From: a virus
Lineage: Duplodnaviria > Caudoviricetes
Strand: one strand, 5' to 3'
Length of the DNA stretch: 33,458 nucleotides
Virus record (IMG/VR): IMGVR_UViG_3300017978_000269
Location: 1 to 33,458 of that record
The number at the start of each line of letters is the position of its first letter. The stretch's first letter is position 1. Positions 1 to 33,458 of the stretch are shown here, one piece after another. The position numbers and the translations under genes are program-made. The notes under the pieces were generated by a model that was not told the origin of the DNA, did not search any database, and worked only from the letters and a program-made list of their open reading frames with translations.

Positions 1-82
1 TGGTGTTGGTGTTGGTGTTGGTGTTGGTGTTGGTGTTGGTGTTGGTGTTGGTGTTGGTGTTGGTGTTGGTGTTGGTGTTGGT
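1..82. repeat. (TGGTGT)13+TGGT microsatellite, left copy of an 82-bp direct terminal repeat
   Basis: Perfect hexamer array at 1-82, identical in length and phase to 33377-33458. Reads CCA ACA (Pro-Thr) on the minus strand. Confidence 0.97.
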
Positions 83-480
83 AGCTTAACGTCCGTTGAG
101 CGTTCGTTGAACGTCCGTTCATTGTTCGTTGTGCTTTCGTTGTGCGGTTGTTGTGCCTTCGCTTTTCGGGCGTTGACCGAGGCGTGTGCAGATGCGCGAG
201 CCTTCGCTTGCTTGTCTTGCATTCTCAAGATTTCTTCATCGCAACGAACGTGTCGCCAGCCTTCGGGCGTTTGCTCAAAAAACTCATTCAGCACGTCACG
301 AATCGTGGCGGCATGGTCACGCAAACGAATGAGCCGTGCAATCTCGGTCACGTCTGCTGGCAGTTGGCCTTCGCGCAGGTAGTACGCATCCAACATTCGG
401 CGGTAGGCCAAATCCTCCATCGGGTCGAGGTGGCCCGTGTGACTGGCGTAGTCGCCAAGGTGAAACGGGTAATAGTTCAT
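1..480 (-). CDS. Replication initiator, DUF1376/YdaU family, N-terminal part (continues across the window junction into 33458..32978)
   Basis: Hand translation from ATG 480: MNYYPFHLGDYASHTGHLDPMEDLAYRRMLDAYYLREGQLP...FFEQTPEGWRHVRCDEEI...DVKLPTPTP. Open to position 1 with no stop, so it is absent from the ORF track. Lies downstream of a Cro-like gene. Confidence 0.88.
   Translation of the reverse strand, partial: MNYYPFHLGDYASHTGHLDPMEDLAYRRMLDAYYLREGQLPADVTEIARLIRLRDHAATIRDVLNEFFEQTPEGWRHVRCDEEILRMQDKQAKARASAHASVNARKAKAQQPHNESTTNNERTFNERSTDVKLPTPTPTPTPTPTPTPTPTPTPTPTPTP
88..164. repeat. Seven degenerate 11-bp tandem repeats, candidate replication-origin iterons
   Basis: AACGTCCGTTG/AGCGTTCGTTG/AACGTCCGTTC/ATTGTTCGTTG/TGCTTTCGTTG/TGCGGTTGTTG/TGCCTTCGCTT. 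The period is not a multiple of 3 and the array lies inside the initiator gene, as in lambdoid origins. Confidence 0.65.
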
Positions 481-597
481 TGAACCCCCAGAAAAAGAAA
501 ACCCCAGACACCCCGTGGGTTCAGCACGGAATATCTGGGGTCAGCCATTGACGGCTTATGAGTATCTGGCCCTGAACCGACCAACGCATAAACCGTC
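481..597 (-). promoter_or_regulatory. Structured RNA leader of the replication gene: two hairpins with complementary 7-nt loops, the second terminator-like
   Basis: Hairpin 597-550 has loop GGUUCAG. Hairpin 541-501 (17-bp stem with G-U pairs) has loop CUGAACC and is followed by UUUCUUUUU. GGUUCA recurs at 486-481, abutting the AUG. Confidence 0.75.
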
Positions 598-617
598 TCG
601 TTGAAATTATAACTCCA

Positions 618-821
618 TCAGACGGGTGGGTAAAGGTCTGGCCGCAACAACGACCTCGACACGCCCGTGGCCTTTTCGATGGGCAGCACGAACTTGGCCG
701 GGATGTTGGCCCGTGCCTTCCACATAGATATCTGCCCCGTGTTGCAGCCGATCAACAGCCCGAGCTTCCTCATGCTCCCGGCGGTCTTGATGGCCCGGTG
801 TAGTGCTTTCATTTGTTCCAT
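618..821 (-). CDS. Cro-like / YdaS-family HTH regulator
   Basis: MEQMKALHRAIKTAGSMRKLGLLIGCNTGQISMWK...IPAKFVLPIEKATGVSRSLLRPDLY; HTH plus the typical LRPD C-terminal motif. Confidence 0.85.
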   Translation of the reverse strand: MEQMKALHRAIKTAGSMRKLGLLIGCNTGQISMWKARANIPAKFVLPIEKATGVSRSLLRPDLYPPV

Positions 822-858
822 GCCGCGCATCATAACGTATCGTGCAAAAAAGACACAA
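822..858 (-). promoter_or_regulatory. Putative sigma70 promoter, probably giving a leaderless cro-like mRNA
   Basis: TTGTGT-18 nt-TATGAT-7 nt-ATG(821); no Shine-Dalgarno. Confidence 0.5.
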
Positions 859-881
859 CCCACCCACGAAAAAATTATTTT

Positions 882-8457: not shown

Positions 8458-8529
8458 TTGCGAGGCGTGGAATTGAACCACGTTCTTTAGGCTCCAAGGC
8501 CTAACGTCCTACCAATGAACGACCCCGCG
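8458..8529 (-). tRNA. tRNA-like gene with an 8-nt anticodon loop (CCUUGGAG); identity ambiguous (Pro UGG / Gln UUG / quadruplet UUGG)
   Basis: Cloverleaf CGCGGGG-UC-GUUC-AUUGGUA-GGAC-G-UUAGG-CCUUGGAG-CCUAA-AGAA-CGUGG-UUCAAUU-CCACG-CCUCGCA-A; C1:A72 mismatch; no encoded CCA. Confidence 0.85.
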
Positions 8530-29261: not shown

Positions 29262-29686
29262 TCGGCGTGTTTACGGGCAAGCGCGGCCAGCACCGCATCA
29301 TTGACCGCTGCGGGGGACATAGTGCCATCGGGCGAGGTGTGTTCCACCTTTTGTGTTTCGGCCCACTTCATTTGTGTTTTGCTCCACCAAATCATGGCCG
29401 TGGTGTCGCCGCCCACCGCCTTTTGGAACAGCGTTTGTCCAATCTTGGCATTGGCTTTGGCCTTCCCCGCTTGCAACTCGGTGTGAAAGTGCTTCCGCAG
29501 GGTGTCGGTGTCGATGCCGTCACGAATCAGCACAGCAATTTGCTCGATGGGCACACCATACCCGGACATTGCTTCCACCCGTGCGCGTTCATCGTTTGTT
29601 GGCTTGAATGCCTGACGGCCAGCACCCTCACGAGCGCCGCCGTGGGTATTTGTGTTTTTTAGGGTCGATTTTTCAAGTTTCGGCAT
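29258..29686 (-). CDS. terS: Terminase small subunit
   Basis: HTH-like region, TLRKHF..EL..GK, GDTTAMIWWSK; directly upstream of TerL. Confidence 0.75.
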   Translation of the reverse strand: MPKLEKSTLKNTNTHGGAREGAGRQAFKPTNDERARVEAMSGYGVPIEQIAVLIRDGIDTDTLRKHFHTELQAGKAKANAKIGQTLFQKAVGGDTTAMIWWSKTQMKWAETQKVEHTSPDGTMSPAAVNDAVLAALARKHAE

Positions 29687-29897
29687 TTGATACCTCTGCC
29701 ATTGTTTTGCCAGTTAAGAGCATTTCTGCTATTGCGGCACTCATAATTGCCACCCGCTCAATTCTGAATTTTGCCGGGTCACTCATCCCAAGCATACGTT
29801 TTTGGGCTTTGTCTTTATGGACGTAGGTGCAGCCATCAACCGGGGAGCCGTCATGGTCATGAACCAAAGTCCATCTCTTGCACGGCTGAACTCTCAT
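29673..29897 (-). CDS. Hypothetical protein
   Basis: 74-aa ORF with overlapping start and stop. Confidence 0.6.
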   Translation of the reverse strand: MRVQPCKRWTLVHDHDGSPVDGCTYVHKDKAQKRMLGMSDPAKFRIERVAIMSAAIAEMLLTGKTMAEVSNAET

Positions 29898-32526: not shown

Positions 32527-32981
32527 GCCCCCTCAAATCGCAACGCTTCACGGGCAAACCGCAGCGAGGTCGGGTTGATGCGTTCGCCAGCGGTGTATCG
32601 AGCAAGGATGCGCTTGGCCCATGCCTTATGGTCAACCTTGGACGGCGTGGCGGTAATGTTGGCCTTCATGTCACCCAATTTGGCAAGCTCGCGCTTCAAG
32701 CGTTCCGGGTCGGCCTTGGGTTCTGGCAATGCAGGGGCTTCGGGCGCGGGGGCTTGGCGGCATAGTTGTTTGAACTCGATGACGTTCGGGCAACGTGGCG
32801 GCAGGTTTTCCAACGCCCATGCGATGCGGTGCAGACTTCCAGCGTATGCCGACAACTCATGCGCCCAAAGTGTTTTCACGTCACCCAACGGGGCGCTGCC
32901 CAATGATTTTTCCCACTGCGCCCCGTAGGTTGCACCAAGGCGGGTAAACAGGCGGTCAATGGCTTGTGTTGATAGGCTCAT
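32523..32981 (-). CDS. Replication accessory protein (lambda P-like position)
   Basis: Immediately after the initiator; LFTRLGATYG..W...W..EL...PPRCPNVIEFKQLCR. Function inferred from position. Confidence 0.6.
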   Translation of the reverse strand: MSLSTQAIDRLFTRLGATYGAQWEKSLGSAPLGDVKTLWAHELSAYAGSLHRIAWALENLPPRCPNVIEFKQLCRQAPAPEAPALPEPKADPERLKRELAKLGDMKANITATPSKVDHKAWAKRILARYTAGERINPTSLRFAREALRFEGA

Positions 32982-33458
32982 TTTCCAATCTCCAAAATGT
33001 CGGTGGCTTGCACGTCAATGAACTGTTGCGGCTGTTTGCCTTCGTGTGCCAGTCGGTCAGGGTGTTCGCGTCCAGTCATTTCCTCCCAACGCTTCCAGCC
33101 CAATTCGCGCTCTTGTTGGGCAAAACTCACGGGCGCGGCTTTGGTTTTTGTCACCAAATCAGCAACCCATTCTGCTTTGAACCCTTGCCAGCCACGGGCA
33201 CAACACGTCGCCAAAGCCATGTTTAACGACATGGGCACTTTGTCGGCTTCGCGTTGTATCGCGTCCAAGGCGGTTTGCGTCAGCGGTGACCGCTTGGCTT
33301 TCCTCATTGCCAAAAAATCATTCCAGACGTTTTCCAAAACACCATCGGGCCGTGCAACGGCCTGTCTTTTATTTACTGGTGTTGGTGTTGGTGTTGGTGT
33401 TGGTGTTGGTGTTGGTGTTGGTGTTGGTGTTGGTGTTGGTGTTGGTGTTGGTGTTGGT
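32978..33458 (-). CDS. Replication initiator, C-terminal part
   Basis: PTPTP-VNKRQAVARPDGVLENVWNDFLAMRKAKRSPLT...CCARGWQGFKAEW; in frame with the terminal repeat. Confidence 0.85.
   Translation of the reverse strand, partial: PTPTPTPTPTPTPTPTPTPTPTPTPTPVNKRQAVARPDGVLENVWNDFLAMRKAKRSPLTQTALDAIQREADKVPMSLNMALATCCARGWQGFKAEWVADLVTKTKAAPVSFAQQERELGWKRWEEMTGREHPDRLAHEGKQPQQFIDVQATDILEIGK
33377..33458. repeat. Right copy of the 82-bp (TGGTGT)n direct terminal repeat
   Basis: Identical to 1-82. Confidence 0.97.

Follow-up and report, generated by a model that had tools for sequence, protein, structure and literature searches.

The stretch of DNA analysed here (the window) is a complete phage record of 33,458 bases that has direct repeats at its termini. 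Its layout is of the lambdoid type: the plus strand carries an arm with ERF, YqaJ and SSB, and the minus strand has a Cro/YdaS-like gene, the DUF1376 initiator, NinG and the genes for head and tail. Neither an integrase nor a CI was found among the 40 and 49 window ORFs scanned. A tRNA gene at 8458-8529 (-) has the lysis genes on one side and the end of the opposite arm on the other. The DUF1376 gene probably continues across the record ends, at 33457-32978, and positions 32978-33457 give an O-like match (phrog_678). The initiator contains a long Thr-Pro hexanucleotide repeat that spans the record ends (window 1-82 and 33376-33458), and whose true length the assembly may have collapsed or inflated. 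The 137 bases that separate the Cro-like gene from the initiator hold a two-hairpin element, the features of which are collected in Table 1.

Table 1. Features of the two-hairpin leader and its flanking genes (window positions).
Feature	Position	Strand	Basis or conservation
Cro/YdaS-like repressor gene, upstream of the element	618..863	-	Pfam YdaS, E 1.6e-12; phrog_35
Predicted sigma-70-type promoter, TTTACC-17-TATAAT	606..634	-	-10-like hexamer at the same spacing in 48/50 listed members
Hairpin 1: ~14 bp, 3-nt bulge (566-564), 5 bp, 7-nt loop	550..597	-	Two-sided changes in both stem parts
Loop 1, GGUUCAG; ends G..AG fixed, positions 2-5 variable	572..578	-	Covariation among members
CCAGAUA copies, one per hairpin	563..569 and 532..538	-	Sequence
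Linker with near-invariant GGCU (546-543)	542..549	-	Possible pairing with AGCC (556-553)
Hairpin 2: 17-bp terminator-shaped stem, 7-nt loop	501..541	-	Fold, covariation
Loop 2, CUGAACC, complement of loop 1, with YUNR at its start	518..524	-	Covariation; YUNR in 49/50 listed members
U tract	492..501	-	7 or 8 T within 8 nt past the stem in 50/50 listed members
Shine-Dalgarno-like GGGGG (489-485) and start codon AUG (480-478)	478..489	-	Sequence
GGUUCA third site, overlapping the Shine-Dalgarno-like/start-codon region	481..486	-	Not conserved
DUF1376 replication-initiator gene, N-terminal part	1..480	-	Pfam DUF1376, E 3e-24

The -35 box of the predicted promoter falls inside the 3′ end of the Cro/YdaS-like gene, and transcription is predicted to start near 599-597, at the foot of hairpin 1. 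This promoter was absent from an earlier note on the window, which had described both hairpins, both 7-nt loops, the U tract, a GGUUCA ahead of the AUG and two copies of CCAGAUA; all of these are present. The fold of the element goes beyond chance (z = −4.86, with 0/200 shuffles as good), and the probability of finding an exact 7-nt complement at any one given place is ~6e-5. An ORF at 584-477 was considered as a leader peptide and rejected: the overlapping frame in L041 has a different length, and no ribosome site was seen for the ORF.

The first copy outside the window, in MW202710, was found by blastn, and this is the single record with the element among annotated phages. Homologues were collected by pattern scans that used no loop letters and by a profile with the loops masked, for which 77 of 515 loci reached at least 15 bits, 33 of them distinct. 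L360, whose contig ends ahead of hairpin 2, was dropped from the set, as was L504, the best match in the genome collection (18.9 bits), which is without such a fold; this gave a first set of 31 sequences, window included. A later set of 20 came from patterns on the linker, the terminator foot and the U tract, together with a second copy in one genome. The total is at least 51 distinct homologues found without using the loops, two of which collapse in later counts (n = 50). Among the pattern matches in the genome collection, 0/86 were members, and the plasmids searched held no match to the element. It was also absent from 40/40 loci of DUF1376 relatives; thus, its distribution is not tied to the initiator family. 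When the window, these 40 loci and 12 longer stretches of carrier DNA were searched generically for two hairpins whose loops are complementary, this element alone was returned. Contigs of relatives also came from sequencing runs X1, X3 and X4, in a form that cannot show RNA ends; the one run of raw reads, X5, contributed 0 reads. One such contig, in runs X1 and X3, matches window 493-598, which is exactly the element, and diverges on both sides; the close relatives of the initiator diverge at 480.

The complementarity of the loops, first noticed in the window, is kept across the family: a perfect 7-bp Watson-Crick match occurs in 50/51 listed homologues, with 11 different loop sequences (codes) among them. 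The loops are exact complements in 30/31 of the first set, L367 having a single mismatch, and in 20/20 of the later set. Over the first 31 sequences the loop helix is paired in 216/217 cells, with 53 two-sided changes and no G-U; over the window and the 20 later sequences it is paired in 147/147. In 500 shuffles this helix was never equalled in paired share, in its count of two-sided cells or in covariation score, although two further measures, the pairs with a change and the pair types, lay within the shuffle range. In slid controls the paired share fell to 20-46%. Four of the seven loop pairs vary, and the only fixed positions are the loop ends (G..AG in loop 1, C..C in loop 2) along with the flanking G-C pairs. 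On a tree built from non-loop columns, loop positions 2-5 change 8, 6, 1 and 5 times (20 in total). Counting these changes as pairs requires no more steps than counting them as single columns, so both loops change together. There is also a suggestive indication that the loops evolve faster than the stems.

Both stems covary as well, by two-sided changes, and their wobble depends on the strand, with 77 G-U vs. 12 A-C cells when read on the minus strand. Judged from the aligned sequences, the structure is real and belongs to single-stranded nucleic acid from the minus strand, and strong selection on the loop-loop interaction is supported. For an uncatalogued RNA, the structural support is unusually good.

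The surroundings of the hairpins are also conserved. A -10-like hexamer lies 7-9 nt ahead of hairpin 1 in 48/50 listed members, against a background of 3.1% at random places, and has a TG extension in 26. An ATG start codon follows the terminator stem by 15-24 nt in listed members. Because a -10 box precedes hairpin 1 and a start codon follows the terminator, we read the element as a promoter-proximal leader that heads replication modules. Members are ~105 nt long overall, with a linker of up to 8 nt and a narrow loop-to-loop distance (51-56 nt in listed members). No -10-like hexamer was found in loop 2 or in the 3′ arm (0/50 listed members), and one occurs on the opposite strand in 8/50, that is, there is no conserved counter-promoter. 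A terminator in the leader of a replication gene, as the earlier note had it, is supported by a predicted terminator with 7-8 T of 8 in 50/50.

The next genes encode replication initiators of several families (DUF1376 in 7/49), an SNF2-type helicase, HNH nucleases and small ORFs. PHROGs, for which 21 of the 49 were scanned, gave replication, helicase and HNH families, and Pfam found no transporter family among the 49. Since the gene after the element varies this widely, the coupling to translation of one initiator that had been suggested for the window is not general. The absence of a visible CI, also remarked on there, is borne out more broadly: neither a tyrosine integrase nor an S24 repressor domain was found in 22 carrier records, six of which are at least 90% complete. 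One genome, G005, holds two copies of the element 2.3 kb apart (C1:27316-27421 and 29644-29750; L517), each with a -10 box and a start codon, and their codes differ at 4/7 positions. By sequence, the element behaves as an exchangeable cassette.

Several further features of these modules deserve mention. Between the two copies in G005 lies a gene of 733 aa that encodes an SNF2-type helicase domain. A 39-aa ORF that is conserved but belongs to no Pfam family often separates the element from the initiator (L362, L214, L363, L046, L170, L517 and L660). Leaders of DUF1376 genes contain int-alpA RNA (RF02996) at L022:1275-1342 and L026:1417-1482, with weaker matches in L005, L013, L038 and L046; in L046 the match, just below the cut-off, lies downstream of the kissing element, placing two structured leaders in tandem. 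The closest relatives of the window's initiator, in L001 and L002 (95% and 86% over ~110 aa), have a different RNA in the same slot. There, at L001:1005-1152 and L002:1356-1503, a small hairpin with UUGGCGG or UUGGUCG precedes a branched stem, which contains the covarying complement of that motif (CCGCCAA or CGACCAA) and is followed by a U tract. This RNA has no Rfam match, and a scan for further copies found none. We take its branched form to recall c4 or P4 CI.

Judging from the sequence, the next gene would need read-through, because a strong predicted terminator precedes it and leaves no room for another promoter. We propose, by analogy and with about even confidence, that the two-hairpin leader is a transcription attenuator, in which a kiss formed in cis during transcription hinders the terminator and gives read-through. 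The promoter would fire and the terminator would work; hairpin 1 would fold first, and its loop would capture loop 2 as loop 2 leaves the polymerase. The kiss would form within one molecule, while ~26 unpaired nt still join loop 2 to hairpin 1, and the closed ring would delay the lower terminator stem long enough for the polymerase to cross the U tract. Transcripts that miss the kiss would end as an RNA of ~105 nt. In this way the element would ration the synthesis of initiator and helicase in phages in which neither CI nor integrase was detected.

The direction of control, from kiss to read-through, is suggested by the precedent of guanidine-IV. For that RNA, a kiss between the first hairpin and the loop of the terminator is proposed to impede completion of the stem, with read-through as the outcome (PMC11611296, PMC7736828, PMC9788692, PMC10907184), and elongation of the stem shortens the linker and opposes the kiss (PMC11611296, PMC7736828). 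In a crude rod model of our element, a kiss with both stems complete is possible only at large bends; this fits two competing states, in a model too crude to decide on a kiss with a finished terminator. Opening the lower terminator stem is estimated at 21-25 kcal/mol, compared with ~7-11 kcal/mol for the loop helix. Since the terminator wins at equilibrium, the lock must be kinetic. A counterpoint is that a leader with no known ligand or factor might be a fixed leak and not a switch; the balance might be tipped by the speed of the polymerase, by a protein or by the short RNA.

Our preferred explanation offers no reason for the near-invariant AAGCC and GGC of the members. By sequence, AGCC and GGCU could form an alternative short hairpin of 4 bp adjoining the terminator, which would end 1 nt ahead of it. 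All four pairs are possible in 46/50 listed members, at a mean cost of ~9 kcal/mol and with no two-sided change. After removal of the first 9 nt this hairpin is complete in 44/50 listed members, and its loop is a GNRA tetraloop in three (L660, L678 and L688). Structures directly upstream of terminators are described as suppressing termination at short spacers (preprint 10.64898/2026.06.17.733018), and this spacer effect may bear on the AGCC/GGCU hairpin.

The same pairing could instead work between molecules, a reading that we hold only tentatively. The short terminated RNA would accumulate, and its loop 2 would bind loop 1 of new transcripts ahead of the emergence of their own loop 2, undo the lock and force termination; the outcome might conceivably be copy control or the exclusion of same-code phages, in the manner of P4 CI RNA. 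The YUNR at the start of loop 2 (49/50 listed members) fits binding by a finished RNA better, because YUNR matters mainly in a closed hairpin, and it is described as a scaffold for the first contact between two RNAs (PMC4152353, PMC4872101); against this, the R at its position 4 rests on a single change. The tree has 12 code switches among the 11 codes, L163 and L347 differ at four loop positions and one other, and the two copies in G005 have distinct codes, but the two-copy case is one lineage, and diversifying selection on the loops is not supported by the tree counts: the 8, 6, 1 and 5 changes in the loops compare with as many as 6 at stem positions that pair, and the tree itself is biased towards low counts in the stems. 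The lack of an S24 repressor or tyrosine integrase in the 22 records would suit RNA-based feedback, as would the RNA of L001 and L002, which pairs an upstream loop with a covarying downstream complement in the same slot. However, no second target occurs between the U tract and codon 6, the pairing does not extend beyond 7 bp, and the finished RNA carries a competing loop 1 of its own. Joined with the nascent kiss, the trans reading would describe a class of RNA with a 7-base address, which we also put forward with considerable reserve: the nascent kiss would lock the terminator open and short RNAs of the same address would unlock it in trans, giving copy feedback, exclusion groups and orthogonal addresses for two modules per genome, in phages without CI or integrase.

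We are doubtful that the terminated RNA is itself the working product, that is, a compact or multimeric RNA, held by the kiss, which binds a protein or polymerase as put does, with read-through set otherwise or with the kiss favouring termination. The element does have its own predicted promoter and terminator, a narrow loop-to-loop distance (51-56 nt), a conserved bulge and near-invariant junction bases, and the put RNAs of HK022 have two stems and follow early promoters (PMC9378689). Nevertheless, its constant place in a replication module, 15-24 nt ahead of a start codon, suggests that it acts in cis, and the put RNAs as described in that source have no loop-loop helix and have stems that meet at one base. 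It seems quite improbable, too, that the leader is a true riboswitch of guanidine-IV design, sensing a small molecule or ion at the fixed kiss ends and turning the replication genes on. Such a sensor would share its secondary-structure plan with guanidine-IV and the variant of that RNA, and could account for the flanking G-C pairs and for loop ends, G..AG and C..C, that do not vary. But four of the seven loop pairs exchange freely within a fully Watson-Crick helix, whereas guanidine-IV is described as needing highly conserved loop bases, and there is no transporter family among the 49 next genes. Because it contains no G-U pair, the loop match also reads as an inverted repeat on either strand, and one might picture an element acting as DNA: a pair of inverted repeats whose 7-bp cores match each other when inverted, serving as a site of recombination or single-strand initiation and moving like a cassette between gene contexts. 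The strand-specific wobble of the stems makes this extremely improbable, as do hairpin arms that are unrelated to each other, the frame of predicted promoter, U tract and ribosome site, and the lack of a tyrosine recombinase in the carriers. We likewise give hardly any credence to the switch envisaged in the earlier note, in which loop 2 chooses between loop 1 and the start-codon region while hairpin 1, through its 3′ arm, displaces the terminator. The window does contain the two extra matches, and there that arm pairs with the 3′ arm of the terminator at −17 kcal/mol; of the three sites proposed to interact the two loops do covary; the start-proximal site does not. A run of at least 6 nt complementary to a member's own loop 2 was found near the start codon in 1/34 contexts, vs. 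2/272 for foreign loops, and in the wider interval from the U tract to codon 6 in 3/50 vs. 12/500, which puts the third site at background level and removes it as a family feature. CCAGAUA stands in both hairpins only in the window itself (1/31), and the pairing of the two arms averages −7.6 kcal/mol with own and −7.2 with foreign partners, reaching −15 or lower in 1/50. The sequences behind the supposed choice are thus not conserved.

If the kiss opens the terminator, then phages would be using the switching plan of guanidine-IV without its conserved pocket, as a gate on replication genes, and this would account for the rationing of initiator synthesis in lambdoid-type phages that have no repressor. 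The 11 natural codes are ready compensatory and cross-talk controls, which makes the question of cis vs. trans directly testable. If the codes act in trans, they would define RNA-based exclusion groups and provide a natural set of orthogonal transcription switches.

A search of Rfam, named as a check in the earlier note, matched no family. In the window, only the tRNA reached gathering; over 400-1000, chance matches alone appeared at E up to 10, with no C4 or isrK, and five members gave none at E up to 1, C4 and isrK included. No paper on the element was found in the literature searched, which left most subscription journals outside. The element may be an unnamed candidate of a collection of >10,000 candidate viral RNAs (PMC10690425), for which we found no match in four supplement files that may not hold sequences.

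Among known RNAs, int-alpA (RF02996) occupies the same slot before DUF1376 genes (L022, L026) but is a three-way junction and does not match the element. The IncI repZ pseudoknot and the plasmid antisense attenuators likewise rely on a YUNR loop for pairing within a replication-initiator leader, and in IncI repZ the loop pairs with sequence at the rep ribosome site. The element, in contrast, has no conserved ribosome-site pairing and no conserved counter-promoter (8/50). HK022 put resembles it in that two stem-loops follow an early promoter in a lambdoid-type phage, and is described as an RNA of ~70 nt that binds the beta′ zinc-binding domain and gives protein-free read-through, with stems meeting at one base (PMC9378689). 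Our element differs: it is ~105 nt long and has an 8-nt linker, stems that are longer and loops that covary, and its second stem has the shape of a terminator.

The P4 CI RNA with its seqA and seqC sites (as also IsrK and P1 c4) is, as described in two sources, a structured RNA that controls premature termination; it is made from a promoter ahead of replication genes and has an upstream complementary site (PMC4825925, PMC10111431). A seqA-like upstream complement is present in the element, where loop 1 complements loop 2 in 50/51 listed homologues, but matches to a seqC-like target from the U tract to codon 6 stay at background level. P4 CI is a branched RNA, whereas the element is a plain hairpin whose pairing is limited to 7 bp, and it has no Rfam C4 or isrK match. 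Guanidine-IV (GGAM-1) and its variant Gd4v are alike in plan, with two hairpins, a loop-loop pseudoknot and a 3′ hairpin that is an intrinsic terminator (PMC7736828, PMC9788692, PMC11611296). The loop core of the element is a freely varying 7-bp Watson-Crick code, where the loop bases of guanidine-IV are described as highly conserved (PMC7736828); it is carried by phages, precedes replication genes and has no known ligand, while guanidine-IV, in the accounts cited, belongs to exporter genes. Because its loop core varies and transporter genes are lacking, the element is not a member of guanidine-IV. It is a real, uncatalogued RNA family, absent from Rfam, and likely a form of kissing-loop attenuation.
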